This document shows positions 10,622-27,837 of a stretch of DNA of 64,000 bases, one piece after another. The stretch is taken from positions 128,001 to 192,000 of the forward strand of contig CAVUWD010000010.1 of the NCBI GenBank assembly GCA_963745025.1, written 5' to 3'. The notes under the pieces were generated by a model. The model made no database searches and was not told where the DNA came from. It was given only the letters and a program-made list of their open reading frames with translations. The DNA is from an uncultured delta proteobacterium. GTDB taxonomy: Bacteria; Desulfobacterota; Binatia; JACPRU01. The stretch's first letter is position 1. Each line of letters begins with the position of its first letter. A program made the translations under genes and the position numbers.

Positions 10622-12474
10622 GGGTACGAGAGGTTTTCGTGATCCACGCCGTGGCACAGGAGGTTGCAGCTTCCCGAGAACGTCCCGGTGTCGTCGAACG
10701 TGGGGGGGCTCCCGGCGGACCTCCCGAGCACGATCCTCGAGTCGAAGTTGATGAGGTGCGTGTGCGATCCGGTCCGCCCCGGGCCGAGATCGCTGACACC
10801 GTGCGGATCGTGACACGCGGAGCAGGGAGCGCCGGCGGCGAGGTGCCCGCTGTGGCCTCCGCCGGAAGCGGTCGTCCGCGCCGTCTTCCTCTGGAAGCTC
10901 CTGTCGCCGAGGATGCTCGACCGGTTGTGGCAGCGATAGCAGAGAGCGTAGCTGTTGAAGCTCTCCGGAGTGTGGTCGGTAGTCACGTAGCGTTCCCTTA
11001 GGATGGGCGGGAACGCGGAGCCGTGAGGGCCCCGCGAGCCCTGCTCGTCGTCGGCGTGGCAGCTCGTGCAATAGATCATCGTGGAACTGCTCATGCCGGG
11101 CTCGAACTGCGACGGAAGGCTCGGCACGTTCGGCTCCCGGCCGATGTCGACGACCGGATGATACGAGGGGTTGGTGGGGTCGAAGGCGAGGCGCGTGTTC
11201 GTCGTGGGGCGGGCGCGCGGAATGCGATCCATGTCCGGCGCGTTCTCGGCGTGGCACTTGAAACAGACTTCGTACTCGTACGCCGCCTGCTCTAGCGCCG
11301 TACCGTTGCGGTCGACTCCGCTCACCCCGAACAGCATCCCGGAGATATCCGGCGCCTTGGCCTCACGATTGGTGAGGAGATGGGGATCGTGGCAGTCCGT
11401 GCAGGTCACGTCGCGGATGACGCCGCTTTGCGCGCCGACCAAACGTGACGACGTGATCGCGCTGAAGCGATGGCTCTGGCGGTGTGCGGAAGGCTTTTCC
11501 ACCTGGCGGCCGATGTCGACCATTCGCGGCCCGAGACGAGCAACCGGACGAGCCGCGGCCGCTCCCGCGACGGCGTGTGCCGGCGGCGGCCCGGAGCCGT
11601 GACATCCTCCGCTGATGCACGAGAACGGCTCGGGCGGCTCGTCGGTGAAGTTGAGCAACTGTTGCGCCGTGGGCGCGAAGTGGGGCGTGTGGCAGGTTTC
11701 GCATCCCCATTCGTTCAGCTGGGTGTAGGTCGGCCACGTCTTCGGGGGTATCGGCAGGACGCCGACGACGGACGCCGTCGAGGTCGCATGCACCGACGAG
11801 CTCCATTGGTCGATCTGGTGGCAGGCGATGCAGAGCGCGGAGTAGCGGTTGTCCATTCGCAGAAACTTCCCGTACACGTCCTTGTGAGAATCGTGGCAGG
11901 TGATGCAGTGAACCTCGTCCTGCCCTCCGTAAACGAGCTCCACGGGAGGCGACGGAGCCAGCTCATTGCTGGGCAGCGCATTCTGGTACGGAAACGACAC
12001 CGGGTGATGTCCGGAGAGGTCGAGACCGAAGTTCGACAGGCTTGCCGTAGGCAGGAAGCCGCTGCCCGCCATGCCGATTCCTCCTGCCGGGTTCAGTACC
12101 GCGCCCATGGCGATGGTCCCGTCGTGACAGCTGAGGCAAAGCTTGGTCGGGCCCGAGGGCTGGGGAAGCGGACCCGCTCTGAGCGTGGGGCTCGCGTAGA
12201 CCTGGTAGACCCTGGGCTCGAGCGCCCGGTTCCAGAGAGGCGAGCGGGGGGCGGCGTTGTGCGGCGTATGGCAGAAGACGCAGATCCGGGTCTCGGTGAG
12301 CGCACGGATCGGTCCCGGGCCGGACACCGAGAGGTTGTGCTTCGTCATCTGGATGTCGGCGGGCAGGGGCACGGGCACCTGTGCCCCTGCGGTGGACACG
12401 AGGCCGGCGAGGAGCAGCAGCAAGAGTCCGGGGGGCAGCGCTCCGCGCTCAGGACGTGCCACGGCGGTCTTCAT
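10618..12474 (-). CDS. Multiheme cytochrome c (10 CxxCH + CX4CH + CX3CH) with N-terminal OmcE-like domain
   Basis: Signal peptide; KHNLS..ICVFCHTPHNA..PLWNR..LCLSCHDG..HHPVSF..CITCH..LCIACH, then six more CxxCH plus CISGGCH and CNLLCH. Confidence 0.92.
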   Translation of the reverse strand: MKTAVARPERGALPPGLLLLLLAGLVSTAGAQVPVPLPADIQMTKHNLSVSGPGPIRALTETRICVFCHTPHNAAPRSPLWNRALEPRVYQVYASPTLRAGPLPQPSGPTKLCLSCHDGTIAMGAVLNPAGGIGMAGSGFLPTASLSNFGLDLSGHHPVSFPYQNALPSNELAPSPPVELVYGGQDEVHCITCHDSHKDVYGKFLRMDNRYSALCIACHQIDQWSSSVHATSTASVVGVLPIPPKTWPTYTQLNEWGCETCHTPHFAPTAQQLLNFTDEPPEPFSCISGGCHGSGPPPAHAVAGAAAARPVARLGPRMVDIGRQVEKPSAHRQSHRFSAITSSRLVGAQSGVIRDVTCTDCHDPHLLTNREAKAPDISGMLFGVSGVDRNGTALEQAAYEYEVCFKCHAENAPDMDRIPRARPTTNTRLAFDPTNPSYHPVVDIGREPNVPSLPSQFEPGMSSSTMIYCTSCHADDEQGSRGPHGSAFPPILRERYVTTDHTPESFNSYALCYRCHNRSSILGDRSFQRKTARTTASGGGHSGHLAAGAPCSACHDPHGVSDLGPGRTGSHTHLINFDSRIVLGRSAGSPPTFDDTGTFSGSCNLLCHGVDHENLSYP

Positions 12475-13531
12475 ATCCCTCCGTGACGCGGAACACCTGG
12501 ATCCGCGCGTTGTACGTGTCGCAGACGTAGAGAGTGTCCTCCTTGATGAAGGCGCCCGACGGAAGCCAGAACTCGGCGAAGCCGATGCCTCTCTGGCCGA
12601 GCGTCAACAGGAACTCTCCCTTCCGGTCGAACAGCTGAACGTTGTCGAAGAGTCCGTCCACGACGTAGATGACGCCGTCTCGGTCCACGGCGATGCCCTT
12701 CGGCATCGCCAGGTCGCCCGAGCCGTCGCCGTGACGACCGAAGGAGGCGAGCGGCTTTCCGTCCTCGTCGAAGATGCGGACGCGGAAATTGAGCGCATCG
12801 GTCACATAGAGCTCTCCCGCCGGCGATCGGAAGATGTGCGTCGGAAAATTGAGGCCGCTCTCGCCCTCTCCCCGCTCGCCGAACGAGAACGCCGGCTCGC
12901 CGGTCGTCCGGAATGCGTGGACCCGGTTCGCCAGTGTGTCGACGACGTAGACGAGCTTCCGCTGCGGGCTGTACGCGATGCCCGTCGGCCGCTGGAGCGG
13001 CTCCCCCCCGGCCTCGCGAAGGACGAAGCGCACGCCGCCGTCCGCTCCGAACGCGAACACCTTTCCGGCCGAGTCCGAGAGAAAGAGCGTCGACTGCTCG
13101 TCGAAGACCAGTCCCACGGGCGACGTGAGAGCGTCCCGTTCGGAGCCGTACAGACGAACGTAGCGCCGCTCGGCCGGCACGTAGAGATGCACGCATCGCC
13201 GGCCCATGTCGGCGACTGCGATCCGCCCGTCGTCACCAGTCGCGACGGCGACCGGCAGCACGAAAGCATTCCGCGCCGGATCCTCCCTGCCGAAGACGAT
13301 CGCGCTCGCGACCGACCTCGCGTCGGTGTCGGTGGCGAAACCGGTGAGCGACCGGACGTACGTGACCTTTGGAGGGCTCGGCGGAAACGGCCATTGCAGC
13401 GCGCTCGGAGGCTCGGCCGTCCTCATCGCCCACTTCGACGCACAACCGGTGCCGGCTGCCATGAACGCAAGCAGCCACACGGCCGCTCGCCCCGCTCCGT
13501 TTCCGTGATCGCCGTGATTCATGCCGCTCAC
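12449..13531 (-). CDS. NHL-repeat beta-propeller lipoprotein
   Basis: Lipobox-like AGTGC, WPFPPSPPK, repeated PxGIAVD/YVxD..N..VQxF NHL units. Confidence 0.88.
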   Translation of the reverse strand: MSGMNHGDHGNGAGRAAVWLLAFMAAGTGCASKWAMRTAEPPSALQWPFPPSPPKVTYVRSLTGFATDTDARSVASAIVFGREDPARNAFVLPVAVATGDDGRIAVADMGRRCVHLYVPAERRYVRLYGSERDALTSPVGLVFDEQSTLFLSDSAGKVFAFGADGGVRFVLREAGGEPLQRPTGIAYSPQRKLVYVVDTLANRVHAFRTTGEPAFSFGERGEGESGLNFPTHIFRSPAGELYVTDALNFRVRIFDEDGKPLASFGRHGDGSGDLAMPKGIAVDRDGVIYVVDGLFDNVQLFDRKGEFLLTLGQRGIGFAEFWLPSGAFIKEDTLYVCDTYNARIQVFRVTEGYEDRRGTS

Positions 13532-15564
13532 AGGATCCGCCGCCGCAGATGGAGATAGATGTACTGGTTCTCGCGATTGGTCCCGACCGTATTCGTGCCG
13601 CTCGTTTGCGATCCGTACGCGGTCCCGCCCAAAACCAGCTGCAGCTGTCCGGTGGTCCAGCTCAAGAACCCATCTACGCTGTACGCGTCGCCGTCGACCA
13701 GTCCGTTCACCCGGGAATACGATCCGCCGACGTTCAGCGACAGCCCCTCCAGGAAAAGCTGCTGCTGGAGGTATCCCGACGCAGTCACCGTTTCGTCCGT
13801 GAAGGCCCTTCGGTCGGTTTCCGACAGTCCCTGGCTATAATACCTGTTCACATAGGTCAGCGCAGCGTGGACGTCGGTCGTCCGGCCGATCGGGCTCACG
13901 TACTGCAGGTCCGCTCTCCATTGCCGGTAGGGGCTCACGTCCCATTCGAGGTCCTGGAATTCTCCGTCGGCGCGGAGCGGGCCGCGCTGGAGACGGAGTC
14001 CCACCGTGTAGACCGTCGTGTCGGTGAGGTTCCCCGGAAAAGAGCCGGACGTCACGGTGGGACGGACCAGCGCGTAGCTGTAGTAAGGGGTCACCTGGTT
14101 TTCGAAGAGCTCGACGCTGCCGTTCTGCGTGAGGGTGTTGGTGCGAATGTCGAAATTTCCGCCGAGGTTCGAATACGAGACGAGAAAATCGTAGGTCCGC
14201 GGGAGGGCGAACCTCGGCGGCAGCGTGAGCAACCGGATTTCGAAACTGTTCTGCACCGGCACGAGCGTGTAGTGGACGTTCTCGACGAGGGGAACGAGCT
14301 CGAACGGCGGCAACGGCGACTTCAGGAAGACGTCGATGCTTGCGCGATCGACGTTCGGCTGCAGCAGCCGAAAGGATCCTGGCACGAGGACCGCCGAGTG
14401 CGGCTCGTTGATGACGCTCGCCGTGCCGCTGTTGTCGCTGGTTCCCGTTCCGAGGTTCACCCCGGCGAGCAGCCTGCCCCACGGAATCGACTTCGTATAG
14501 TTGACGTCCACCCAGTGGAAGAGCGAGGTCGTCGAGCCGCCCACCGAGTCCCACGAATTGAACTCGAAGTGGTATCCCGAGTCGACGCTCTCGTAGAGCC
14601 GGTGAACGAGGTTTGCCAGGATGTCATTGCCGTGGTTCGTCAGCCGTTGGGACTGTGGAGTCGCCAGGTCGGTGATCGTGGCGTCGTCGTCGCGGTAGCG
14701 GTAGGAAGCGTCGCCGCGGAAGTTCCACGGTAAATACGTGTTCAACAGCTCGTACACGGAAAACTGGTCGCTATTGAAATCCTGCGACGGGCGGCTCTGC
14801 TGCTGATCGAAGGACCTCTTGACCACGCTGGACGTAAGCTGCACGCTCCGCAGGTTCACGAAGTTGCCGAGCACGTATTCGTACGATGTGCCGTTGAGTC
14901 CCAGAGAGTCGCTGAACCAAGTCGGATTGAAGCCGCCGTTGAAGGACAGCTCGTTCCCCGCCGCGGTGCGCAGGAAATACTTGCCATTCACTGCGAGTTG
15001 GTTCACCTCCGAAGACGTAACGCCGTAATCGTTCGACTGGTTCACGAAGTTGGTGCCAAAAAAATACGGCTTCTTGCGGTAATGGAGCTCTACGCCGCGC
15101 CGGTTCTCGATTTGATCGAATTGAGGCGCGGCCTGTTCGGTGAACATCGGCTCGTACCGGTCCGCGAAGACCACCATGTTGTAGAAGTGCTCGGGTAGCA
15201 GAGTGAGCCGCGTTTCGTATTCGGGGCCGGTCCTATGGCGCCAGCCGGTATCAGGCAGGAAGGACGATTGGTAATTCTCCTGTGAGAGGACCCCGCCGAC
15301 GGTGAACCGATACTGCAGGAACTTGGGGTCGTACGAGTAGCCGATCGATCCGACCGAAAGCTTTTCCTTGATGAACGTGTCGGTCCATTCGACGGTGCGT
15401 CCCGCACGGTTCCTATCGCGCTCCCACGACGTAAACACGTCGATCCAGGCGCCGTTGTCCACGGGTGTCGGCACGAACTCCCTCCAGTCGCAGAGCGCGG
15501 ACGACGAGGTCAGCGCCTCGAGCAGGCACAGGCCGATCAGCCGCAGCGCGAGGTATCTACCCAA
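13528..15564 (-). CDS. Large putative outer-membrane beta-barrel protein (porin-cytochrome conduit type)
   Basis: Signal peptide; 678 aa rich in Y/F/W/N/S/G with alternating beta-strand pattern; between NHL genes in a cytochrome operon. Confidence 0.7.
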   Translation of the reverse strand: MGRYLALRLIGLCLLEALTSSSALCDWREFVPTPVDNGAWIDVFTSWERDRNRAGRTVEWTDTFIKEKLSVGSIGYSYDPKFLQYRFTVGGVLSQENYQSSFLPDTGWRHRTGPEYETRLTLLPEHFYNMVVFADRYEPMFTEQAAPQFDQIENRRGVELHYRKKPYFFGTNFVNQSNDYGVTSSEVNQLAVNGKYFLRTAAGNELSFNGGFNPTWFSDSLGLNGTSYEYVLGNFVNLRSVQLTSSVVKRSFDQQQSRPSQDFNSDQFSVYELLNTYLPWNFRGDASYRYRDDDATITDLATPQSQRLTNHGNDILANLVHRLYESVDSGYHFEFNSWDSVGGSTTSLFHWVDVNYTKSIPWGRLLAGVNLGTGTSDNSGTASVINEPHSAVLVPGSFRLLQPNVDRASIDVFLKSPLPPFELVPLVENVHYTLVPVQNSFEIRLLTLPPRFALPRTYDFLVSYSNLGGNFDIRTNTLTQNGSVELFENQVTPYYSYALVRPTVTSGSFPGNLTDTTVYTVGLRLQRGPLRADGEFQDLEWDVSPYRQWRADLQYVSPIGRTTDVHAALTYVNRYYSQGLSETDRRAFTDETVTASGYLQQQLFLEGLSLNVGGSYSRVNGLVDGDAYSVDGFLSWTTGQLQLVLGGTAYGSQTSGTNTVGTNRENQYIYLHLRRRIL

Positions 15565-15570
15565 GGGCGT

Positions 15571-16707
15571 TTACCGGGGCTTCGGCGTCTTGTATTTCTC
15601 CTGGATGAGCTCCAGCAGCTCCGCCTCGGTGGGATACGTCTTTCCCTTCTCCTTGCCGTACGCCAGGACGCTCACCGGGTGGTCGCCGACCTGGCTCGTC
15701 ACCAGGACGAGATAAGCGGCCTCGAATTTCGGGTCGACGAAGGACTGGAAATACCGCAGGTTGTCATAATCGATCGCGACCTTCGCGGGGAGCAGCAGGG
15801 CGCCGGGCGCATCTTCTTCCGTCGGCGTCCCCCCGAAGAAAAGCAGCAGTTGCCCATCGGGATTGAAGACCTGGACGTTGTTGAAGGCCGCATCGACGGC
15901 GTACACATGGCCTTCGCGGTCCACCGCGATGCCCTTCGGCCGTGTGAAGTGTCCGAGGTTGTCGCCGGGCTTTCCGATCGCCGCCTTGAAGCGGCCCTCG
16001 CGATCGAACTCGACTACCTGGAACCTGCCGATGTCCGCGACGTAGAGCATGCCTTCGGTATCGATCGCGAGGTTGGTCGGCCGGTCGAGCCGCTCCGCCG
16101 GCTCTCCCTTGTCGCCGATGGTCCTCACGGTCTCGCCGCTCTGCCGATCGAGGACGTGGACCAGACCGTTGACGATGTCGGCGACGTAGATCTCGTTCCC
16201 GAACGGAACTACGTCCACCGGTCTCCAGGGGCGGTCAGGCGTGCCGTAGGCTTTCAGGTACGCGTCGTTCGGGTCGAACACGACGACCTGGCCGCGGACC
16301 GAGTCCGCGACGTACTTGTTGCCCTCGGCGTCGATACTGATGTTGATCGGCTGGCGGAGCGCTCCGAGACCGGTCGCCCCCTTCAGCGGCTCGAACGTCT
16401 TGTGCTCGAGGTCGAAGACGACGACCGTATTGTTGGTGTCGCAGACGTAGATCTTGCCCTGGTGGATGGCGACGCCATAGGGCTTGTCCACCCGAACATC
16501 CTGCTTCTCCCCGACCACGAACCGGTTGAACACGGATTGCGTCTCGATGTCCTTCCGCCCGCGAAACGACGTCAGGTATTGAATGCGCGGAAGCTCCGGA
16601 GGCGGCGGGAAAAAGGCGATCTTCCTCTCCACGACGACGGCCGGCGCGCAACCCGCCAGGAAGGAGAGAAGCACTCCAGATGCCGTCTTCCTGAGACGAT
16701 TCGTCAT
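15571..16707 (-). CDS. NHL-repeat beta-propeller lipoprotein
   Basis: Lipobox FLAGC, FFPPPPELPRIQYL, NHL repeats (KPYGVAI, RPTNLAID, RPKGIAVD). Confidence 0.88.
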   Translation of the reverse strand: MTNRLRKTASGVLLSFLAGCAPAVVVERKIAFFPPPPELPRIQYLTSFRGRKDIETQSVFNRFVVGEKQDVRVDKPYGVAIHQGKIYVCDTNNTVVVFDLEHKTFEPLKGATGLGALRQPINISIDAEGNKYVADSVRGQVVVFDPNDAYLKAYGTPDRPWRPVDVVPFGNEIYVADIVNGLVHVLDRQSGETVRTIGDKGEPAERLDRPTNLAIDTEGMLYVADIGRFQVVEFDREGRFKAAIGKPGDNLGHFTRPKGIAVDREGHVYAVDAAFNNVQVFNPDGQLLLFFGGTPTEEDAPGALLLPAKVAIDYDNLRYFQSFVDPKFEAAYLVLVTSQVGDHPVSVLAYGKEKGKTYPTEAELLELIQEKYKTPKPR

Positions 16708-16749
16708 GGCGACACGCTCCAGCCAAGCGCAGCTCCGAGACGAACCGGT

Positions 16750-17079
16750 CTTGGAGTGTGCTCCGTCAACTTCTCGGTGAAGTGGTGATCGTTGAAGTTC
16801 GTCGAGCGCAGCTTCACGATCCGCTCGCGAATCTCGTCTTCAAGCCGGCGCGCCGGAGCGCGTCCGGTATTGCCGTGCACCAGCGCCGCCCGCCCGCGCT
16901 CTTCCAAGGTGCGTCGCACACGCCGTACCTGCCGCTCGATCAACCACGAAGCCGCGTCATCTTCAGCCGCCGCCGCTTCAGCCGCTCCACCGCGTCGCGC
17001 CGCTTCTACTGACTCTCGCTCATCGTGTCCATCCCTTCATTCTCGCCGAGAGGGCGGACATTTCACTGACTGCAATACA
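16750..17079 (-). mobile_element. Degenerate IS1202/ISNCY-type insertion sequence remnant (left end + transposase N-terminus)
   Basis: RQVRRVRRTLEERGRAALVHGNTGRAP...NDHHFTEKL HTH fragment with upstream stop and frameshift; end TGTATTGCAGTCAGTGAAATGTCC read from 17079. Confidence 0.7.
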
Positions 17080-17139
17080 AGCGCTGCCCTCTCCGTTGCG
17101 GCTCCGCGCGGCCGGCTGCGGTGATCGAGGCGGCGCCCC

Positions 17140-17336
17140 TAACCTTGATCCGAAATTCCTAACCCGCTTCCCCGATCCGAAATCCGCGCGGGTCCTGTCG
17201 TCAGCGTAGCCCGCGCGGTGCTCGCTGGCGGCCCCACCGCGCCGCTCCACTGCCCCGCGACTTCGCGCCCGATTCGCTGCGCGCCGCGCGGGCGCCCACG
17301 CCGACGCCACCCGCACGAATTTCGAATCGGGGCTCA
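17140..17336. repeat. MITE-like element A with imperfect terminal inverted repeats
   Basis: Starts TAACCTTGATCCGAAATTCC, ends GAATTTCGAATCGGGGCTCA; 17252-17336 recurs inverted at ~26952-27035. Confidence 0.55.
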
Positions 17337-17356
17337 TGGCCTCTACGCCGCCGCTT

Positions 17357-17492
17357 GCCGCGTCGCGAGCGCCAGGTCTACCACGATGCCGTCTTTTGGG
17401 GCATGGAAGGCTTCGAGAAAGAAGCTCGTGGCGGACAAGCCAGGCGCGAGCCCGCCGCGTTCAAGTCACAGAAGAATTTCGCATCGAGGCTA
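17357..17492. repeat. Dispersed repeat B, copy 1 (~136 bp)
   Basis: Closely similar to 49124-49259 (GAGCGCCAGGTCTACC..GATGCCGTCTTTTGGGG..GGAAGGCTTCGAGAAAGAAGCTCGTG..ATCGAGGCTA). Confidence 0.85.
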
Positions 17493-17659
17493 GGAAGAAG
17501 CTCCTCATCGCCATGGCCCGAAAGGTGATCGCGTTGGACTTCAAAGAGCTCGAGGCGATGATGGCACTCGGCATCGCCACGCTCATCGCAGCGCTCGCCG
17601 CGCGCTACTATCTGATGAAGCGCGCGGGCGCCGCCCCACGTAGCTCTCTGCTCGATTGA
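17493..17659 (+). pseudogene. C-terminal fragment of a PsiE-family membrane protein
   Basis: LLIAMARKVIALDFKEL..LGIATLIAALAARYYLMKR; 5' part replaced by repeat B. Confidence 0.5.
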
Positions 17660-17678
17660 GGAGTCGGCCGGGGCCGCC

Positions 17679-18101
17679 ATGCCGCCGTTACGCGCCGGAT
17701 CGCTCTGGCTCTACGTACATCCCGTCCTGGCATTGGTCGGCATCGGGCTACTGCTGTACGCCGCCAGCCTCGGTCTGGCCACCCGGCAGCGGCGGCGCGC
17801 CAAGGCAGCGCTTCTTCGCCGCCACGCCCGCCTCGGACCATACGCCTACGCCCTCATCGTCCTGAGCTGGGTGCTCGGGTTGGGGTCAGCTTGGTGGGGG
17901 CGCAGCGACCTCGAGTTGGCGGCGAGCGGTCATTTCAAAGCCGGCTGTTATCTCGTGCTACTGCTCAGCGCCACGGCGCTGCTGTCGCGGTGGATGGATC
18001 GCGTGCCCGGCGGCCGAACCATCCATCCGCTCCTCGGCGCGGCGGCGGCGTTGCTGGCCGGGTTCCAAATCTTCCTCGGCCTCCAGCTCATGCCGAAGTA
18101 G
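17679..18101 (+). CDS. DUF4079-like 4-TM membrane protein with His residues
   Basis: YVHP, RRHARLG, SGHFKAG, TIHPLLG in four helices (cytochrome b561-like pattern). Confidence 0.6.
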   Translation: MPPLRAGSLWLYVHPVLALVGIGLLLYAASLGLATRQRRRAKAALLRRHARLGPYAYALIVLSWVLGLGSAWWGRSDLELAASGHFKAGCYLVLLLSATALLSRWMDRVPGGRTIHPLLGAAAALLAGFQIFLGLQLMPK

Positions 18102-18330
18102 TGGCCATTGTCGCGGCGGGCTACCCGACGGGCACGAGCCCAGCTCGTCACGAAATCAATTGCTGGAGTGCTGGAGAACCGGCGGCAATGCGAGGATGGG
18201 AGGATCAGCAGAACGGCCTTGGCCGGGCCGCCGCTCGCACCCCCCGAGAAGACGTGGGCCGGGAGCTATACAATTGCCCCACGTCGACTCGGGTCGGTGC
18301 TCATCAGCGCAAATCAGTCGATGGGAATCC

Positions 18331-18759
18331 TCACTTCTTCAACGTTCGCATGTAATTGACGACGTCCCACATCTCTGTCGGCTCCATGAGCTTCTTGCCC
18401 GCAGGCATAGGCTTCTTCCCCTCCGCGATCTTCCAGTAGAGCTCGCCGTCGCTCTGCTTGACGATCGACGGATCCGTGAGGACCTTCATCCGATCCTTCT
18501 CTTCCTTCTTCATCTCGGCCACCTTCTTGCCGTCGCTCTGGCCGTTGGCCCCGTGACAATCCGTGCATTGGGCGTCGTACGCCTCCTTGCCGGCCGCGAG
18601 AGACTCCTCGTTCGTCGCTTGGGGGTTCTTTTTCTGAGCCTCGGCGGCGGGCGCGGTCCACTCTTTCTCCGCGGCGATGATCAGCGAAGCGCCGAAGGCG
18701 GTGGTTCCGACGATCGTCAGGATGGCCAGCCAACTCTGTTGACGAATAGATCTCACCAT
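18331..18759 (-). CDS. Monoheme cytochrome c
   Basis: Signal peptide, KKNP, CTDCH, SDGELYWKI..KPMPA (Met ligand). Confidence 0.9.
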   Translation of the reverse strand: MVRSIRQQSWLAILTIVGTTAFGASLIIAAEKEWTAPAAEAQKKNPQATNEESLAAGKEAYDAQCTDCHGANGQSDGKKVAEMKKEEKDRMKVLTDPSIVKQSDGELYWKIAEGKKPMPAGKKLMEPTEMWDVVNYMRTLKK

Positions 18760-19109
18760 TTCTTCTTCCTTTCAGGTTGCCAATCGTTGGACGATGACGC
18801 GCGAATCTCGTCTCCTCGATCGAACCGGCGGAGGACGCGCCCGCGCGAAATTGTCGCGGCCGGTCAAGTAGCCGTTCAGCGTAGACTCTTTTCTTCGCGA
18901 ACCGTCTGCCACATCGCACTCCGCGCAGATGCAAGAGCCGTGCGTGATATGGGCCACTCTCGTAGCAACGATGATTGCGGCATTCAAGGTTGAGAAAACG
19001 AACGGAGCTTCTTAGATCCGGGAATTTGCGTCCTCCGATTTTCCCGAAGAGCGGAACCAAGGGGAACCTCCGCCACGTTGTTTCGTGTTCGGACGCGCGA
19101 AGCTGGCGG

Positions 19110-19125
19110 TGGCACACCAAATGCT
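19110..19125 (+). promoter_or_regulatory. Sigma-54 -24/-12 promoter candidate
   Basis: TGGCACACCAAATGCT (GG-N10-GC) just upstream of the tetraheme/FeS/NrfD operon. Confidence 0.55.
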
Positions 19126-19138
19126 CGCGGGGATTGCC

Positions 19139-19860
19139 GTGTCGCTACGCAAGTACGGTTTCTATCTGGGTCTCGGCTTGTTCATGGGCATTTCGCTGGC
19201 GATCCTCGCTTTCGAACTCTCGGGCCGGAGGGGATCGGCGATGGAGAAGACGCCGGCCGCCATGCCGCGCACTCCCGGCGATTTCCGTTCGCTCTTCGCC
19301 TTCAACCCCTTGAAGGGCCTGGGAGAGGGTAGCGGCGACGTCCACGCCAAGATGCCGCCGTTCAGCGAAGGCACTTGGCCCTGTTCGGATTGCCACAATG
19401 GCAAGAAGCTGAAGGACAATCCGATCCGGCGCGTTCTGGTGAAAGAACACTCGGGCATCACGCTCCACCACGGTGAAGAAGATGAGAGTCTGTGGTGCCT
19501 CGATTGTCACGATTTCAAGAACCGGGATCGGCTCCGTCTGGCGGGCGGTACGCTCGTCGAATTTGAGGAGTCCGATCGCCTCTGCGGCCAATGCCACGGA
19601 CGGATCCACCGCGACTGGAAAGCGGGGGTTCACGGGCAGCGCACCGGCTTCTGGAACGGCCCAAGCGCTACCTCCTGTGCCTGAACTGTCACTGGCCGCA
19701 CTCGCCGCGCTTCGACGCCCTCGAGCCGCTGCCGCCGCCCGTGCGTCCCGAGCAGATCGGGCTCGGGCTCTTGCGGGCGAAGGCCGGCGGGGTCGAGCGC
19801 CCCGCCGATGCCCCAGCCGCCAGCGAAGGAGCAAAGACCGCCGAAGGAGCCAAGCAATGA
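19139..19860 (+). CDS. Membrane-anchored tetraheme cytochrome c (CbcS-like); frameshift at ~19662
   Basis: TM helix, CSDCH, CLDCH, CGQCH, RDWKAGVHGQRTGFWNG, then in the next frame KRYLLCLNCHWPHSPRF; start uncertain. Confidence 0.8.
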
Positions 19861-20759
19861 GCGAGCAGGACGGCGCGGAGGGAATCAGCCGGCGGGAGGC
19901 CCTCACTTTGGGCACGGCCACGCTCGCGGCGCTGTTCGTTTCGGCGTGCACCGGCGAGTCGATCGAGGCGTTCTTCCAGAAGCGGTTCGACGAGCTGTCT
20001 CCTGACGAGGTCAAGAGAGTGCTGGCGCGGCTCGAAGCCAGGTACACTCAGCGCTTCGGCAAGAAGGTCACGGTCGATGACACGCCGGCGGAGGAGGGCG
20101 TGGTCTTCGGGTACGGGCTGGACCTCTCCCGCTGCATCGGTTGCCGGCGCTGCGTGTACGCGTGCGTCAACGAGAACAACCAATCGCGAGACCCGCAGAT
20201 CCAATGGATCCGGGTGCTCCGGCAGCAGCGCGAAAAGGGCGTCGTCATCGAAGGAGCCGAGCAGTATTACGACGCCAAGAAGGTGCCGGAAGAGGGCTTC
20301 TTCTACATCCCGGTGCAGTGTCAGCAATGTGAAAATCCCCCCTGCACCAGGGTCTGCCCCGTCGGCGCCACGTGGAAGGAAAAGGACGGAATCGTCGTCA
20401 TCGACTACGACTGGTGCATCGGTTGCCGATGCTGCGTCGCCGCGTGCCCGTACGGGGCGCGTCACATGAACTGGGGCGACCCGTTCCTCCCCGCCAAAGA
20501 GCTGAACCCGAACACCCATTACCTCGGCAATCGCCCGCGCCCTCGGGGCGTCGTCGAGAAGTGCACGTTCTGCATCCAGCGCGTCCGCAAAGGACGCTAT
20601 CCGGCGTGCGTGGAGATCTGCCCGGTCGGCGCCCGCAAGTTCGGGAACCTGCTCGACCCGAAGAGCGAGATCCGATACCTGCTCGAGCACAAGCGGGTCC
20701 TCGTGTTGAAAGCCGAGCTCAAGACCGAGCCGAAGTTCTTCTACTTCTACGGGATCTGA
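19857..20759 (+). CDS. 4Fe-4S dicluster protein, NrfC/DmsB family (CbcT-like)
   Basis: Tat-like SRREAL; CIGCRRC, CQQCENPPCTRVCP, CIGCRCCVAACP, CTFC..CVEICP. Confidence 0.92.
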   Translation: MSEQDGAEGISRREALTLGTATLAALFVSACTGESIEAFFQKRFDELSPDEVKRVLARLEARYTQRFGKKVTVDDTPAEEGVVFGYGLDLSRCIGCRRCVYACVNENNQSRDPQIQWIRVLRQQREKGVVIEGAEQYYDAKKVPEEGFFYIPVQCQQCENPPCTRVCPVGATWKEKDGIVVIDYDWCIGCRCCVAACPYGARHMNWGDPFLPAKELNPNTHYLGNRPRPRGVVEKCTFCIQRVRKGRYPACVEICPVGARKFGNLLDPKSEIRYLLEHKRVLVLKAELKTEPKFFYFYGI

Positions 20760-20780
20760 CGCGGCGATAGGGACAAAATC

Positions 20781-22037
20781 GTGAACCAATTCCGCTTCCT
20801 CGTTCAGGCGCTCCGCTACGCATTTCGCGGCGGGCTGTTCTATTACCTCTGGCTCGCATTTCTCGTCGCTCTGGTGGCGTGGGGTGGCGCTGCCTATCTC
20901 GAGCAGCTGAGGCGCGGGCTGATCGTCACGGCGATGCGCGACCAGGCGTCGTGGGCGTACTACATCGGCAACTTCACGTTCCTCGACGGCGTGGCGGCCT
21001 CGGCGGTGATCGTCGTGATCCCTGCGTTCATCTACGACTGGAAGCCGATCAAGGAGGTCGCGATCCTCGCGGAGATCCTGGCGATCAGCGCCATCGTGAT
21101 GTCCTTGCTCTTCGTCATCGTGGACCTGGGTCGGCCCGACCAGCTGTGGCACTTCTACAAGCTCAACGTTCCCTCGTCCCTGCTCGCCTGGGACGTCTGC
21201 GTCCAAAACTTCTATTTCATGGTGAACATCGTCATCGTCGCGTACGTGCTCTATCGCACCTATAACGGCCGGCACGTCCGCGAGGGTTTCTTCGTGCCCC
21301 TGGTGCTGCTCTCGATCCCGGCCGCGATCGCGATCGTCGCGGTCACCGCCTTCATCTACAACGGACTTGCCGCACGTCCGTTCTGGAATGCATCGATTCT
21401 GGCCCCCCGATTCATCGCGAGCGCTTTCTGCTCCGGCCCGGCGATCCTCCTGATCCTCTTCCAGATCCTTCAGCGCACGACCAAGCTCGAGATCAAGGAC
21501 GAGGCCATCTGGAAAATCGCCGAGCTCATGGCCTACGCCATGTTCGTGAACCTCTTCCTGCTCGGTGCCGAGGTCTTCAAGGAGGTCTACTCGAGGACCG
21601 AGCACATGATTCACTTCAACTACCTCTTCTGGGGCATCGGCGGTCATCGGGCTCTCGTCCCCTACGCGTGGGCAGCAGTCGCGGCGAGCGCGACCGCTTT
21701 TGTCCTCCTGCTGATCCCGGCGACCCGCACGAACCCGTTCACCCTGAACCTCGGGTGCCTGTTGATCTACTCGGGGGTCTACATCGAGAAGGGAATGGGG
21801 CTCGTGATCCCCGGCCTCACTCCGGACACGCTCGGCGAGATCTACGAGTACGTGCCGACGTGGTACGAGGTGCGGATCGGTGCGGGCATCTTCGCGATCG
21901 GATTCCTCGTCTACACGATCATCACCAAGATCGCCGTCGGAATCCTGATCGGAGAGCTGCGCACCGAAGCGGCGCGCGCCGCCGAGATCGCGGAAGCGGC
22001 CGGCCGTCGCCTGAAGCCCTCGCTGCACTCGGTCTGA
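20781..22037 (+). CDS. NrfD/PsrC family quinol-binding membrane subunit (CbcU-like)
   Basis: WAYYIGNFTF, VDLGRPD, SLLAWD, RPFWNAS, IEKGMGLVIPG, YVPT. Confidence 0.92.
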   Translation: MNQFRFLVQALRYAFRGGLFYYLWLAFLVALVAWGGAAYLEQLRRGLIVTAMRDQASWAYYIGNFTFLDGVAASAVIVVIPAFIYDWKPIKEVAILAEILAISAIVMSLLFVIVDLGRPDQLWHFYKLNVPSSLLAWDVCVQNFYFMVNIVIVAYVLYRTYNGRHVREGFFVPLVLLSIPAAIAIVAVTAFIYNGLAARPFWNASILAPRFIASAFCSGPAILLILFQILQRTTKLEIKDEAIWKIAELMAYAMFVNLFLLGAEVFKEVYSRTEHMIHFNYLFWGIGGHRALVPYAWAAVAASATAFVLLLIPATRTNPFTLNLGCLLIYSGVYIEKGMGLVIPGLTPDTLGEIYEYVPTWYEVRIGAGIFAIGFLVYTIITKIAVGILIGELRTEAARAAEIAEAAGRRLKPSLHSV

Positions 22038-22689
22038 AGCGCCCTGACGATCGCTGGCACTGGCATAGTTCGTGGTTATGTAGCTGAGTCGGAGGGTGTT
22101 CTTCGAAGCGGGAGTCGATCGATCACCGAGGTTTATGATCTTTTCCTTCTGTCCCTATCGTCTAGTGGCCCAGGACGCCATTTCATGGCTTCGGCAGGCG
22201 CGTGAATTCCGGTTTCCGGGAACGATTTTTGCGGCCGAGGCCTGCTCACAGTGGAGACCGAGGTTCAAATCCTCGTAGGGACATAATCGAGTGGTGAGAT
22301 GTAAAGCCGTCTGCGAGTTTTCGCTCTAAGATGTCGATAATACTGCTGTTTTTGCCACGAGGCTCGTCTTGGCGGGGAGAGGGATTTTGCTCTGTATTAG
22401 GTAATAGTAAGCGGTGCTACTGCGCCGCCGCTGTGCGTCCGCCGATTATCGTCGATCTGCCAGCAAGCGCAGTGTACAAGGCGGGCGGTTCCTAGAGTTG
22501 GGAAACTTATTCGAAAATTTTCTAAAATTTGAAAAACTAATGCTACTTGCTTTCTAGCTCATAATGAGTGAAATCTCATATTTCTCAGGTGAATTCCTCT
22601 TGCCGCCATGCCGGAGTTACGGACCCGCCGATCGATTCGTCGGAAGGTATAATTTTTGCTCTCTTTTTTCCCAGACGGAGGAGCCATCG

Positions 22690-25600
22690 ATGATAGCGAG
22701 AACGAAGACCCGGTCGGTGAAAGCCCCGCTCGTGACCGCACTGACCGTCTTGGTCATGCTCCTGGCCACTGGTCCGGTGGGCGCCTTGTACCCGCCCAAC
22801 GGCGCGAAGCCGACTGGGGACTCCGCTGATCCTTACATGAACCCGGATGACGGCATGTGCGTCGTCGGCGTCGCAGCCGACGGCACGATGCGCGTCGATT
22901 GGTCGATCACGAACGCGCGGGATTGCGTTGCGTATACGACCGGGCTCGGCACGATGACGGGGGTCGACATCACCACTTCGAGCACCTGCGGTGCTCTCGG
23001 AACCGGGTTGTGCAACACCTCGGCACTTTGCACTCGACCGAACGGAAGCGCGGTCTGGAATGCCGCGGCATTGAAGTGTTTCGATGTCTCTAGCTGCCTG
23101 AGCGCGGGCGCCGACAACGCGACCTGCACGGCAGCCGGTGTACCGTTGCCGTGCTGTACCGGCAACGGGACCGGAACGTGCGGCGTGAACGACGGCTACA
23201 GGCACGCCTTCGCCACGACCAACACGTGCGTCAACGCTGCCGACCCCACGACCGCCATCAGCCTGGTGGATCTCGACCGCACGCTGCCCATGTGCCAATC
23301 CAAGGGCGGGACGACGCTGTCGCCGATCCCAGGGACGTGCGTGGCGTACGGCTGGGTGTACAGGAACAGGAACGCCGATGGCCCCCCCCCGACGCTCCCG
23401 GTTACGGGGGTTGGCGTCGGACACGACCGACGGCGTGCAGGCCAGCGCCGGTCTGGGCTTTTGTTACACGGCGATTCGAATGACCGGAGGTGGCTATACT
23501 CCGCCTAGCCCCATTACCCCCACCTCCTGTCCATCCTGGCACAACAGTCCGACCGGCAACGCGGCCGAGTGGCCCGCTTGCCAGAGTAGCACCACGGGAT
23601 GCCAGACCCCGCAGTCGTACGATGCCGGCCTGGGTTGGTCATTCTCGACCCCCAATTGCGTGTATAACTTCGGCATACTGGGCACCCAAAATGCAAACGT
23701 AACCAACGCCGCTGGTGTAGTGACCCCAGCGGGTACACTTGTGGATCTCACCGGCATCGACAACCAAGGCGATTGTCTCGCAGCAGGCTATTCCTGGGAC
23801 AACTGGCTCCCCTTCCCTGGCCCGACAGGCATCAGGACCAGTGCCAGTGGAGGAGATTACGCCGGGATGCCCCCAGGTCCGCCCGCCGCCCAGATCGTGA
23901 AATTCGATGCGCTCACTCCGATCGAAGGCGGCGGGGGCGAATTCTTCAGCGGCACCGGCTTCAACTGTCTGAGGTGCCATGCCGATCAGTCGAGGGCGTT
24001 CCAGGAGCGGAACAAGCCCGGCTTCGTCAAGACGAGGCACCAGAAGGCCGGCGACGCGATCGGCAAGCCGTTCCAGCCCTTTTTCAACGATGCCGACTCG
24101 TCTTGGGGGCTGCAGGGCGTTCAGTGTACAATGTGCCATAGCACCGCGAGGCCTTCGCAGGACGACTTGATTCAGGTTGTCCCCGCGGGAGTGGTTGGCC
24201 CGCCTGCCGCTGGCGCCCCCAAGAGCGCCACGGGCCACAACCAGACCGAATACGGGGCGCACTTGCTCGACATCTGCTACACGTGCCACGGCACCCCGGC
24301 TCAACCCCCCCTCGACCCAACAATCGTAAACCCGGCGGAGCACATCCCGGTGTCCAATGGGGACTTCAGATTGACATTGAATAATCCCGGACCGGCGACC
24401 TCCAATCTTTTCAATAACATACCGCCGCTACCAGTACCGCCAAACGTGGGGGGGCTGGCGCCAATCATGAACCAGTTCCTGAACAGCCCGCATGCACAGT
24501 ACGCGGGCTCGAGCCTCAAGGTCGACATCGGGAACAAGGACAACTACGGTAGCACCTTCGAGGGCTATGTCTGCCGGACGAGCAGTACTGTCGGCGGAGG
24601 CTCCATCATCACCACGGTCTACAGGAACGGCGTGGCGGAGAAGATTCCGAACGTCGACAGCACGGACAACCCGGCTTGCACGAACGCGGCCGACGGGTCG
24701 GCGACGAGCGGCGCCGGCGGCTTCTGGGTGAAGGACGGCGAAACTAGCCCAGGTGTTCCCACCGATACTGCGCAGGGCAACTGCATGACCTGCCACGACG
24801 TCCACTGGGCGCTGGCTTCCACCGATAAGGACAAGCCCTGCATTCAATCCAGAGGGCGAGCCGTTCCGGAGAGAATGCACCACCTGCCACGTGAACCCCG
24901 GAACGTCGGCGTCGGGCGCGCCGCAGATCGACCTGGCGACGATCAACCACCTGAAGACGGCGGGCACGCCACTCGAGAATTGGGCGACCGATCCCGACTC
25001 AGCGTGCGAGACCTGCCACATGCCGAAATCAGGCGGTGAGTCGAGTAACACCTCGCCCATGCACCTCTGGCGGATCAATACCGACCCGAATTACCACACG
25101 ATGGGAGCCACGGAGGCCAACCCGCGCCCGATCGGGGAAGGCTACACCGACGCGGCGTGGGTGGACATCGAGCACGCGTGCGGTCAGTGCCACGGAACCG
25201 ACGGGAATCGACGGCGCGATATCTGCACGTGGACTGCGCGCCCCCTCGTAGCACGGAAGTGCTGGCGACGGTCGCGAAGGGCATGCATAGCGCCACGGCC
25301 GTTTCGTACTTCGTGAACTTCAACATCGGCCCGGTCAGTGGACTGCAAGTCCCCGTCACCGCCACCGTCGACTGCGGCGGGGCGACGTGCCCGAGCTTCA
25401 CGTACGACTGGGACTGGGGAGACGGCACGCAGGCGCTGGGCGCTACCGCGAGCGAGACCCACACGTACGCGAGCGGAGGATCGAAATCGATCACGTTGAC
25501 CGTGCTATTGAACGGCAGTAGTGTGGGTTCCGCTACCCGGAGCGTCAGGTTGTTCAATCCGGATCTCCCCCCGACCGCCCTGGGCCACTGCAGGTACCGT

Positions 25601-25864
25601 GCGGACAGGCGGCAGATGAAGCTCGTGGACAAGTCCACTGACGACGGCCCGGACGCGGATACCCTTCCGGGCGACGGCGAGGCCACCCTGCAGATCGTCG
25701 TCGATTGGGGCGACGGCAGCACGAAGACGATCACCAAGCAGGGCGCGATCGTGAAGCATATCTATCTGCTCCCGGGAACCTACACGGTCACCCACACCGC
25801 GATCGACGCGAAGCTGCAAAAGGACGTGAGGCACTGCAACCCGACCACCGTCACTGGACCGTGA
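22690..25864 (+). CDS. Large secreted heptaheme cytochrome c with Cys-rich N-terminus and C-terminal PKD domains; split by about three frameshifts (~23420, ~24836, ~25220)
   Basis: GGAGGAG RBS and signal peptide; CLRCH, CTMCH, CYTCH, CMTCH, CTTCH, CETCH, CGQCH across frames; YDWDWGDG and VDWGDGS PKD motifs. Confidence 0.8.
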
Positions 25865-25928
25865 GCTTTGCTCTGACAAGCAGATGAACGAAATGCGAAT
25901 AACGAAGGCCTACGGAGGGAGAATCGAG

Positions 25929-26732
25929 ATGAAAGCGTTCAAACCAAGCGCGGCGCTGGCAGTGCTGGTCATCGTAGGCTGGGTGTCCCAGGTTCCCTCC
26001 GCCCTAGCCTACACCGGAACGTACGTGCCGGGTGTGGGAATCAACGAAACGCCGCACGACCTCGGCCACCCGCACAATGGAATGAACTACGTTGCGGTGC
26101 CGACAGATCCGCAGCAGAGAATCTGCATCTTCTGTCACGCGCCGCACAATACGTACAGGATCGCCGGGACGCCGGGTAACGGCCCGGTAGCCCCTGCGGC
26201 CTTCAACTACCTGCCGCTGTGGAACCACACGCTGCAGGCGAACACCGCATACATGATGTACGACGCCGGGCCCGGCGCGCCGACGGTCGGACCGAAGCGC
26301 ACGAATGCCAAGGACGTCGGCATGACCCCCGGCAGCGTCTCGCTCCTCTGCCTGAGCTGTCATGACGGAAGCGTCGCTGTGAATTCCTGGGGCAATACCA
26401 GTCAGGCGACGCAATCGGTCGGTAATACGTTCATGACTTTGGCATACCAGATCGGTACGAGTCAGTCCCTGATCAACCACCATCCGATCGGGTTCAACTA
26501 CAACGCGGTGCAGGCGGGAGACATCGAGATCCGCGACGCGAGCACCGTGCAGCTGACGGTGGATACGTTCGTCAGCGACCACCTCTACAACCAAAACCTC
26601 GAGTGTGGCACTTGCCATTCGGTGCACAACAAGGGGAACACGGGCGAGAAGCTGCTGTGGAGGAGTGACCAGCGCAGCGAGCTCTGCTTGACCTGCCACG
26701 ACAAGGGTTTCTACACCCCGCCGGCAGGGTAA
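25929..26732 (+). CDS. OmcE-like tetraheme cytochrome c
   Basis: Signal peptide; TPHDL, ICIFCHAPHN, PLWNH, SLLCLSCHDG, HHPIGF, LECGTCHSVH, LCLTCH: motif order of Geobacter OmcE as recalled. Confidence 0.85.
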   Translation: MKAFKPSAALAVLVIVGWVSQVPSALAYTGTYVPGVGINETPHDLGHPHNGMNYVAVPTDPQQRICIFCHAPHNTYRIAGTPGNGPVAPAAFNYLPLWNHTLQANTAYMMYDAGPGAPTVGPKRTNAKDVGMTPGSVSLLCLSCHDGSVAVNSWGNTSQATQSVGNTFMTLAYQIGTSQSLINHHPIGFNYNAVQAGDIEIRDASTVQLTVDTFVSDHLYNQNLECGTCHSVHNKGNTGEKLLWRSDQRSELCLTCHDKGFYTPPAG

Positions 26733-26739
26733 GGCGTAC

Positions 26740-26913
26740 TCGAGCAGCTGCCGGCCGATCGTCCGGAGCTGCAGGTTCGCCGTCCCCTCGTGGATCTGCC
26801 GCGACCCTCGATGTCTTTCCCACCCGCCGTGGCCCGGTCAGCACGACGGACGGAAAGCTCCGCGCCGCCAGCATGACGGCCCGTTCCAGTTCGCGACGGA
26901 GGTAGCGCATCAA
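26740..26913 (-). pseudogene. N-terminal fragment of an AAA_14/DUF4143-type ATPase
   Basis: MRYLRRELE..FPSVVLTGPRRVGKT Walker A, after which similarity is lost. Confidence 0.55.
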
Positions 26914-26951
26914 TGAGTTTTCGAAAGTATCGGTTTAGATTTCTCAAGTCC

Positions 26952-27035
26952 TAAGCTCGAGCCGGAATTCGCGCGGGTGGTGTTGGCGTCGGGGGCCCGC
27001 GCCGCGCGCAGCGAATGCGGGGCGAAGTCCCGGGC
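26952..27035. repeat. Partial copy of MITE-like element A
   Basis: TAAGCTCGAGCCGGAATTCGCGCGGGTGG..GCGCAGCGAAT..GCGAAGTC aligns with the reverse complement of 17252-17336. Confidence 0.7.
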
Positions 27036-27039
27036 TACT

Positions 27040-27837
27040 TCAGCCCGCCAAGGTCTCCGGCGGCGGCCCGCCGTCGACGACGATCGTCTCGCCCGTCATC
27101 CAGGACGAGGCGTCGGAGGCCAGGAAGATGCACGGGTAGGCGATCTCCTCCACCCGTCCCCACCGGCCCATGCCCACCCGGGAGGCCACCGCCTTGTAGG
27201 TCTTCTCGGCGTCCGGGTCCGACTTCTTGAGGACATCCAGGAAGCCTTCGGTCTCGACAGGCCCCGGGGCAACGCAGTTCACGCGGATGCCCTGGCGCGC
27301 CCAGGCCGTGCCCAGCTCGCGGGTGAGCATGACGACGCCGCTCTTGGCGGCGCCGTAGTGAGACATCATGGTGGAGCCGTAGACGCCGGCGGTCGACGAG
27401 ATGTTGATGATCACGCCGCCCGCCGGCTGCTGCGCCATCATCTGCTTCGCCGCCCACTTGCAACCCAGGAAGACGCCGGTCAAGTTGATGCCCACCACCG
27501 TGTTCCAGCCGTTGATCGAGATGTTCTCGGGCCTGGCTTCGAATGACGCGCCGGCGTTGTTGACCATGATGTCGAGCCGCCCCCACCGGGCGGCGGTTGC
27601 CTCGACCATGGCCTTGACCTGCTCCTCCTGGCGCACGTCGACCGCCGTGGCGAAGGACCGCTTGCCGAGATCCTGGATGGCCTTCACCACCGGCTCCAGG
27701 TGCTCGATCTTCCTGCTGCAGATGGCGACGTCGGCCCCGGCGCGGGCGAACTCGATCGCGATCGACTCGCCGATGCCGGTGCCGCCTCCGGTGACGATCG
27801 CGGCCTTACCTTGGAGAGAAAACGGAGTCTTGGTCAT
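27040..27837 (-). CDS. SDR family NAD(P)-dependent oxidoreductase
   Basis: TGGGTGIG, NNAG, YGAAK, IRVNCVAPG. Confidence 0.93.
   Translation of the reverse strand: MTKTPFSLQGKAAIVTGGGTGIGESIAIEFARAGADVAICSRKIEHLEPVVKAIQDLGKRSFATAVDVRQEEQVKAMVEATAARWGRLDIMVNNAGASFEARPENISINGWNTVVGINLTGVFLGCKWAAKQMMAQQPAGGVIINISSTAGVYGSTMMSHYGAAKSGVVMLTRELGTAWARQGIRVNCVAPGPVETEGFLDVLKKSDPDAEKTYKAVASRVGMGRWGRVEEIAYPCIFLASDASSWMTGETIVVDGGPPPETLAG

Follow-up and report, generated by a model that had tools for sequence, protein, structure and literature searches.

The closest described relatives of the protein considered here are two OmcE filaments, that of Geobacter sulfurreducens (PDB 7TFS; PMC9473688, PMC12954529, PMC13712944) and the bundled OmcE nanowire built from DSOUD_2954 of Desulfuromonas soudanensis WTL (PDB 9YUQ; Petersen et al. 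2026, PMC13712944), and these two, both from Desulfuromonadia, are the bacterial OmcE filaments solved so far. In OmcE, as in OmcS, a histidine of one subunit ligates a heme of the next subunit (PMC9473688, PMC12954529). A rise of ~34 Å has been reported for OmcE. Petersen et al. report four further bis-His ligands that are conserved among homologues, and as a criterion of wire competence they use a large β-barrel and a β-propeller lipoprotein encoded nearby. A porin–NHL–cytochrome cluster of peat Acidobacteriota, termed EET1, was read in turn as an Mtr-like conduit by Fiorito et al. (2026, bioRxiv 10.64898/2026.05.27.727921). Here we describe a tetraheme cytochrome gene, P0001, and its partner genes in a 64,000-nucleotide stretch of contig CAVUWD010000010.1 (positions 128,001 to 192,000; hereafter the window) from the genome of an uncultured member of the Binatia. 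OmcE homologues with barrel and propeller neighbors in several phyla (Petersen et al.) and the cluster type itself (Fiorito et al.) are already in print; what follows is a well-supported annotation and no new kind of system. The candidate additions to what is known are an apparent inversion that splits the operon and a possible anchor domain encoded within the cluster.

P0001 is an OmcE-family tetraheme cytochrome

P0001 encodes a protein of 267 residues and is preceded by a Shine-Dalgarno-like GGAGGG (coordinates of all features are collected in Table 1). By inspection, the N-terminus of the translation has K2 and K5, a hydrophobic core and then ..PSALA, with YTG following the presumed cleavage point, and the first cysteine of the protein is C66, which excludes a lipobox. 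Four CxxCH motifs (C66-H70, C141-H145, C226-H230 and C253-H257) are accompanied by four further histidines, H43 (PHDL), H73 (APHN), H185 (HHP) and H233 (SVH). A preliminary description of this DNA, made from the letters alone, had proposed an open reading frame (ORF) with these limits, a strong ribosome-binding site, a Sec signal without a lipobox, four CxxCH motifs and four additional histidines, and each of these elements is borne out. Pfam and NCBIfam return only generic multiheme motifs for P0001 (Paired_CXXCH_1, cytochrome c7). The gene is the sole stand-alone copy in the genome (5.65 Mb in 20 contigs). For the NAD synthase gene, the named matches at 77-79% identity conflict with one another, being to Burkholderiales, Betaproteobacteria, Myxococcota and Deltaproteobacteria MAGs. 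A promoter and terminator scan of positions 22000-27100 found no signal exceeding the shuffled background.

When P0001 was searched by phmmer/HMMER against all PDB sequences, the matches specific to it were 7tfs_A (E=1.8e-16) and 9yuq_N (E=1.1e-13), both well outside what chance would give. In the HMMER alignments every CxxCH and every extra histidine of P0001 pairs with a counterpart in both 7TFS and 9YUQ, and the 9YUQ alignment, which spans P0001 residues 38-259, contains the same eight histidines and eight cysteines; the order of OmcE motifs given in the preliminary description is correct. A family profile hidden Markov model (HMM) built from a 141-sequence alignment matches the 7TFS protein with 177 bits (E=2.5e-53), and the 7TFS protein holds histidines in the same extra-histidine columns as P0001. 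The family is large (2707 proteins at E<=0.001 in 90% clusters, 2894 representatives in 50% clusters), and exactly four CxxCH motifs occur in 238 of 271 collected members. Across the 141-member alignment all eight cysteines and H43, H70, H145, H185, H230, H233 and H257 are invariant, H73 being kept in 134, and these 16 ligand positions are also conserved among 117 stand-alone relatives and 60 fused ones, the latter being N-terminal domains of larger cytochromes. The preliminary description had made its reading depend on the presence of the inter-subunit ligand; because all four distal histidines, that is, all four ligand histidines outside the CxxCH motifs, are kept in P0001, a counterpart of the OmcE interface histidine exists in the protein, whichever of them it is.

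The predicted fold points in the same direction. An AlphaFold2 model of P0001 computed from 141 homologues has a mean predicted local distance difference test score (pLDDT) of 92.1 and shows the OmcE type of architecture, mostly coil on a heme-core scaffold. In a Foldseek search of the PDB with this model 7TFS was the sole match at E<=0.001 (E=6e-8, template-modeling score 0.53/0.68), out of three matches at E<=10. Phylogeny was inferred with FastTree only, from 177 rows (117 stand-alone proteins and 60 fused N-terminal domains) and with no root inferred; in this tree the 60 fused N-terminal domains together with four stand-alone proteins lie on one side of a branch with Shimodaira–Hasegawa-like support of 96, and both P0001 and the 7TFS protein lie on the opposite, stand-alone side. 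P0001 is thus homologous over its full length to the two solved subunits, and the sequence and profile matches, the fold and the conserved ligands give full support to the preliminary description's reading of it as an OmcE-like tetraheme protein.

Partner genes and their order in relatives

P0001 had been called stand-alone. The term holds for the ORF itself and is misleading for the locus, since the canonical partners occupy 9.6-16.7 kb of the window, on the opposite strand. They comprise a lipoprotein with an NHL β-propeller (NHL_b), a 678-residue protein, a second NHL propeller protein (NHL_a), a 618-residue multiheme cytochrome and two c7-type triheme cytochromes, which match the NCBIfam model TIGR04257 (nanowire_3heme) with 69.5 and 61.7 bits (cut-off 40). 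All of these genes are intact ORFs, and the two propeller genes and the genes for the 678-residue protein and the 618-residue cytochrome agree in length with their counterparts in relatives. The 678-residue protein gave zero matches in Pfam and NCBIfam, and its AlphaFold2 model (pLDDT 89.4) is nearly all β-strand; the best Foldseek match of the model is MtrB (6r2q_B, E=3.8e-10), and LptD, FimD and TonB-dependent receptors come next. Because of the all-β fold and the MtrB-led structural matches, we conclude that the model is that of a large outer-membrane barrel.

A further set of genes, on the same strand as P0001, encodes a candidate membrane module of the quinol side, in which a small multiheme cytochrome is joined by a 4Fe-4S protein and by an NrfD-type subunit. 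The NrfD-type subunit matches the NCBIfam model DsrP with 381 bits (equivalog cut-off 350), the DsrO match of 182.8 bits is under its cut-off of 200, and no DsrMK genes were seen near 19085-22037. A pair of genes for an iron–sulfur (FeS) protein and an NrfD-type subunit likewise adjoins the module in two related loci (L038 and L067 of the set described next).

A scan with one genome per species yielded 79 related loci carrying NCBI labels of 21 phyla, compared with five phyla of homologues in the text of Petersen et al. The recurring order is the stand-alone tetraheme gene, an NHL gene, a gene for a protein of ~650-700 residues, a second NHL gene and a gene for a multiheme cytochrome of ~600 residues. 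An NHL gene lies within the flanks of 70 of the 79 loci, and several of the nine loci that have none stop at a contig edge; the C-terminal part of the large cytochrome was found in the flanks of 51 and a barrel homologue (~680 residues, by a one-round HMM) in those of 48. All three occur together at 41 of the 79 loci, with labels of 13 phyla that include Bacteroidota, Calditrichota, Verrucomicrobiota, Planctomycetota, Ignavibacteriota and Acidobacteriota. Eight of the 79 were matched through a fused N-terminal domain and not through a stand-alone gene. Among metagenome loci at least 52% identical to P0001, 23 of the 28 that could be tested have an NHL gene no more than 1.5 kb downstream, and 25 of 26 have a large gene with multiheme and PKD domains directly upstream. 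The closest long loci come from Acidobacteriota and Binatia metagenome-assembled genomes (MAGs).

Four loci of 59-60% identity (L136, L137, L139 and L140) have the subunit gene with no NHL gene after it. At L140, one of the five exceptions to the downstream NHL gene, the barrel, NHL and large cytochrome genes come first, ahead of the PKD-domain gene and the subunit gene and on the strand of these two, a further rearrangement of the module.

Comparison with omcE clusters, EET1 and other conduits

The 7TFS protein was reached in a genome with 100% identity over 221 residues, and the 20 kb around it were examined. In order, this cluster has resB, ccsB, genes for cytochromes with nine and eight CxxCH motifs, one NHL lipoprotein gene, OmcE, a gene for a 755-residue protein and glycosyltransferase genes. 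From such sequence comparison, the module of the window is best described as a related but distinct variant of the omcE cluster, of Fiorito's EET1 type. With EET1 the region 10618-16707 has in common a barrel, an NHL scaffold protein and a multiheme cytochrome described as 'OmcE-like'. In the Fiorito preprint, its supplements aside, 'OmcE' occurs once, in a figure legend on proteins of 8-13 hemes, and the words 'nanowire' and 'tetraheme' occur nowhere. The barrel and NHL genes that Petersen et al. look for beside an omcE homologue are both in the window, 9 kb from P0001 and on the other strand, and the canonical locus of the family has them nearby.

P0001 also differs from the solved subunits. 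It is 35 residues longer than OmcE, for which a filament has been shown, whereas P0001 is known here from its sequence; the 9YUQ subunit has 218 residues and, in the account of Petersen et al., forms antiparallel bundles through non-conserved loops. OmcS (PDB 6EF8), a hexaheme protein, and the archaeal nanowires PcECN and AvECN offer an analogy, in that they are insulated heme chains with cross-subunit histidines; a PDB sequence search and Foldseek gave zero sequence or fold matches between P0001 and OmcS, PcECN or AvECN. MtrCAB (PDB 6R2Q) shares with the module a task, the passage of electrons across the outer membrane, and its MtrB is the barrel most like that of the window, whereas Mtr includes no NHL propeller, and among the cytochromes tested none reaches the cut-off of the MtrA or MtrC families.

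A split operon and an apparent inversion

In the window P0001 and its partners lie on opposite strands, and repeats in the surrounding sequence offer a candidate cause. A 44-nt inverted repeat, the arms of which lie within copies of a dispersed repeat of ~200 nt (17 matches in the genome, including itself), brackets a 9.7-kb segment (17298-26990) with the NrfD/FeS/cytochrome module, the upstream PKD-domain gene and P0001. When this segment is re-inverted, all the genes come to lie on one strand, in the order small cytochrome, FeS protein, NrfD-type subunit, upstream gene, subunit, ~850 nt, NHL, barrel, NHL, 618-residue cytochrome, c7, c7, which is the canonical order, preceded by the quinol module as it is at L038. 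The 9.7-kb segment thus appears, on this reading of the sequence, to have been inverted, separating the subunit gene from its partners. The ~850 nt between subunit and NHL gene contain fragments of HTH_32 and AAA_14 type, and the AAA_14-type fragment runs into the 3' end of the tetraheme cytochrome gene. Mis-assembly across the repeat copies seems unlikely, because the copies are only ~85% alike. Near-identical relatives were sought, and the best metagenome match to the locus is merely 69% identical.

The upstream gene (hereafter 'up'), co-oriented with P0001, is spread over four frames. It is collinear with single ORFs at two related loci (1626 residues at L004 and 1397 at L003, each with eight CxxCH motifs), and the first of its three shifts lies beside a run of ~9 C (23382-23390); the gene could be a pseudogene or the product of an assembly error. 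Four sequence runs (three DNA libraries and one RNA library) were compared with positions 16500-27200, using short contigs; the share of the sampled words present in a run was at most 0.28. Three DNA runs from soil or wetland, of which one may be the source sample, contain contigs that match P0001 with 0-1 differences. None of the short contigs of the four runs spans the inversion junctions or frameshift sites 1-2, the uncovered parts being uninformative. In the rice-paddy RNA library a contig of 1791 nt, ~93% identical, spans the end of the 'up' gene and the subunit gene, which is a weak hint that this gene pair is transcribed in a relative, weak because DNA can occur in RNA libraries. At site 3 the contig of this relative is shorter by a net 11 nt, a difference that would bring the two halves into a single frame and that does not decide whether the shift in the window is real.

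Filament subunit or conduit component

We favor, as the probable reading of these sequences, that P0001 is a secreted, non-lipidated OmcE-type subunit that would polymerize into a conductive filament; it is reasonable to infer this from homology to two solved filaments together with the cluster criterion of Petersen et al. P0001 would be exported by Sec, loaded with heme (CcmB and CcmC homologues are encoded near the start of the window) and passed on to an assembly in the outer membrane that consists of the 678-residue MtrB-like barrel and two NHL-propeller lipoproteins. Head-to-tail polymerization would follow, in which one heme per subunit takes its sixth ligand from a histidine of the neighbor, most plausibly the N-terminal H43, and the outcome would be a continuous, insulated heme chain outside the cell. 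The quinol pool would supply the electrons, by way of the NrfD/FeS/small-cytochrome module, the two c7-type cytochromes and the 12-heme cytochrome of 618 residues. The neighborhood therefore offers a complete candidate electron path, from quinol module through c7 proteins and 12-heme cytochrome to barrel, two propellers and subunit. Ancestrally, these genes would have formed a single-strand array, later split between the subunit and first propeller genes by foreign DNA and by inversion between dispersed repeat copies. A homodimer prediction (two copies of residues 28-267 with four of the eight hemes, run without controls) gave ipSAE values of 0.22/0.18 against a mark of 0.42, which speaks neither for nor against binding. 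If P0001 does polymerize, testable cytochrome nanowires extend to uncultured soil and wetland bacteria.

A number of observations weigh against this reading. P0001 is only about 28-31% identical to the solved subunits and 35-49 residues longer, and the N-terminal domain of the 618-residue cytochrome outscores it against both 7TFS and 9YUQ. The omcE cluster has the same parts list as the module in a different order; its cytochromes lack a full OmcE-like domain, unlike the 618-residue cytochrome; and an HMM of the 678-residue barrel family gave zero match at E<=10 to the 755-residue protein that follows OmcE (locus L121, 12508-14772), so that the barrels of the two cluster types are apparently unrelated, or else highly diverged. 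Fiorito et al., in the preprint text, interpret EET1 as an Mtr-like conduit and invoke no filaments. The split operon and an upstream gene that leaves its frame three times could reflect local decay or assembly error, and the dispersed repeat family, with its 17 matches, is a recombination substrate, but its position as a bracket may be partly coincidental.

A rival reading is that P0001 is a non-polymerizing part of a porin–cytochrome conduit, a single molecule docked on or in the 678-residue barrel together with the 12-heme cytochrome in the manner of MtrA and MtrC with MtrB; it would carry electrons across the outer membrane and build no filament. The best structural match of the barrel is MtrB of the Mtr complex, the same cluster type has been modeled as a membrane-spanning Mtr-like conduit in the preprint of Fiorito et al., and gene order and barrel family differ between the module and the verified omcE cluster. 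Set against this, both solved structures of the family to which P0001 belongs are filaments (the 9YUQ structure as described in PMC13712944), all four distal histidines of the filament pattern are invariant, the N-terminal one included, and in dozens of loci the solo gene persists alongside a fused paralogue and encodes a small secreted protein of its own, an arrangement that would be redundant if both were fixed parts of a conduit. We regard the conduit explanation as unlikely on this balance, although it is the more serious of the two rivals. Less probable still is that the locus is decaying or partly mis-assembled, so that P0001, though intact in sequence, would have lost both its operon and a functional upstream partner and would no longer serve electron export. 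The operon's break between the genes for the subunit and the first propeller, with HTH_32 (E=9e-5) and AAA_14 (E=0.05) fragments at the junctions, the three frame changes that the 'up' gene requires, one of them at the ~9-C run, and a contamination of 7.6% in the genome bin are what such a history might leave behind. The P0001 ORF, however, is full length, has a good ribosome-binding site and retains every family-invariant residue; none of the four partner genes is disrupted, and their lengths are those found in relatives; P0001 contigs with 0-1 differences occur in three DNA runs, one of them possibly the source sample; and the RNA-library contig of the 93%-identical relative, weak hint though it is, spans the 'up' end and the subunit gene.

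A candidate filament anchor in the 618-residue cytochrome

The 618-residue cytochrome begins with a complete OmcE-like tetraheme domain at residues ~24-220, similar to P0001 (BLASTP E=3e-18) and, in the search of PDB sequences, to 9yuq (E=2.2e-25) and 7tfs (E=4.5e-24). The better PDB scores made this domain a candidate for the true OmcE orthologue, which we rejected, since the tree groups OmcE with the stand-alone proteins. The fused N-terminal domains keep all eight ligand histidines, and in 54 of 60 fused homologues a ninth histidine lies exactly 10 residues past the fourth CxxCH, the position at which P0001 terminates. How wires are mounted and terminated on the cell is an open question in the 2026 literature. 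Petersen et al. (PMC13712944) argue that the best anchor for a filament would resemble OmcE and have four hemes and nine histidines, and Geobacter-type operons are reported there to have yielded no candidate for it. The ninth histidine is suggestive in matching this expectation, and it could equally ligate one of the eight further hemes of the 618-residue protein.

The module may, as a tentative and rather doubtful proposal, encode both a wire and its socket, the solo protein polymerizing and the N-terminal domain of the ~600-residue cytochrome serving as the filament anchor. In such an arrangement the ninth histidine could satisfy the interfacial heme and so join the chain of the filament to the hemes that lead through the MtrB-like barrel. 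The candidate anchor bears directly on the mounting question, and if the proposal were true, the module would represent a second and far more widespread OmcE-type nanowire system (labels of 13 phyla) with defined initiation and anchoring.

Glycosylation

The preliminary description had counted three N-x-S/T sequons in P0001 and taken the protein for a likely substrate of an oligosaccharyltransferase. The three sequons are present (N39, N99 and N156), and their number equals that expected by chance (shuffle mean 2.7, P(>=3)=0.52); D or E at position -2 is absent from all three. All 24 close homologues retain N39, but only 30 of 140 sequences overall do, and N99 falls in the conserved PLWN motif. 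An AglB/STT3-type oligosaccharyltransferase gene and a PMT_2 glycosyltransferase gene adjoin the partner cluster, and the match of this gene pair (5539-9503) to TIGR04154, at 233.7 bits, is under the cut-off of 450. Glycosyltransferase genes follow many omcE clusters in the account of Petersen et al. (PMC13712944). The AglB-like and PMT_2 genes were found at none of the 79 related loci, and this query detected no AglB-like protein in the genomes of five relatives, which are incomplete MAGs. Modification of P0001 by the oligosaccharyltransferase is thus not supported, given chance-level sequons, no acidic residue at -2 and an enzyme gene that is unlinked in relatives.

Features of the window

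Table 1. Coordinates of the features discussed, numbered from the first nucleotide of the window
Feature	Position	Strand	Basis or remark
AglB/STT3-type oligosaccharyltransferase (archaeal-type)	5539-7992	+	Pfam AglB_L1, AglB_core, STT3
PMT_2 GT-C glycosyltransferase	8106-9503	+	Pfam PMT_2
c7a and c7b, c7-type triheme cytochromes	9615-10139; about 9956-10600 (c7b start not fixed)	-	NCBIfam TIGR04257
618-aa cytochrome, 10 CxxCH and 2 variant motifs	10618-12474	-	motif count
NHL_a, second NHL β-propeller protein	12449-13531	-	Pfam NHL, synteny
678-aa predicted outer-membrane β-barrel	13528-15564	-	AlphaFold2 and Foldseek
NHL_b, NHL β-propeller lipoprotein (lipobox ..LAGC)	15571-16707	-	Pfam NHL, translation, synteny; follows the solo cytochrome in relatives
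HTH_32-like transposase N-terminus fragment and weak AAA_14 N-terminus fragment	16704-16943 and 26575-26913	-	E=9e-5 (below Pfam cut-off); E=0.05
Left arm of 44-nt inverted repeat	17254-17297	.	inside a copy (17130-17335) of the dispersed ~200-nt repeat; arms 86% complementary
Quinol-side module: small multiheme cytochrome; 4Fe-4S protein; NrfD-type subunit	19085-19684; within 19473-20759; 20781-22037	+	Pfam, NCBIfam
'up' gene, multiheme and PKD domains, co-oriented with P0001	22564-25864	+	four frames; shifts near 23424-23429, 24847-24864 and 25196-25229
GGAGGG, Shine-Dalgarno-like	25914-25919	+	~10 nt before ATG; read from sequence
P0001, OmcE-family tetraheme cytochrome ORF including stop	25929-26732	+	267 aa; ATG at 25929, TAA at 26730-26732
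P0001 Sec-type signal peptide, residues 1-27	25929-26009	+	translation inspected by eye
H43 (PHDL), distal heme ligand, N-terminal histidine and candidate inter-subunit ligand	26055-26057	+	kept in 141/141; pairs with KHDL His of 7TFS
Heme motif 1, C66-I-F-C-H70, and distal H73 (APHN)	26124-26147	+	C66, C69, H70 invariant; H73 in 134/141
Heme motif 2, C141-L-S-C-H145	26349-26363	+	invariant
H185 (NHHPIGF), distal heme ligand	26481-26483	+	141/141; pairs with NDHPVNF His of 7TFS
Heme motif 3, C226-G-T-C-H230, and distal H233 (SVH)	26604-26627	+	invariant
Heme motif 4, C253-L-T-C-H257	26685-26699	+	invariant; C-terminus 10 residues on
Right arm of 44-nt inverted repeat	26991-27034	.	259 nt past P0001 stop; repeat copy 26963-27034, minus strand, 85%

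At the start of the window, homologues of CcmB and CcmC, of the System I type of cytochrome c maturation, are encoded at 11-1319 on the forward strand, and after them comes the gene of a TPR protein that weakly matches the CcmH type. The position of these genes suggests that a heme-attachment apparatus is encoded close to the cytochrome clusters.

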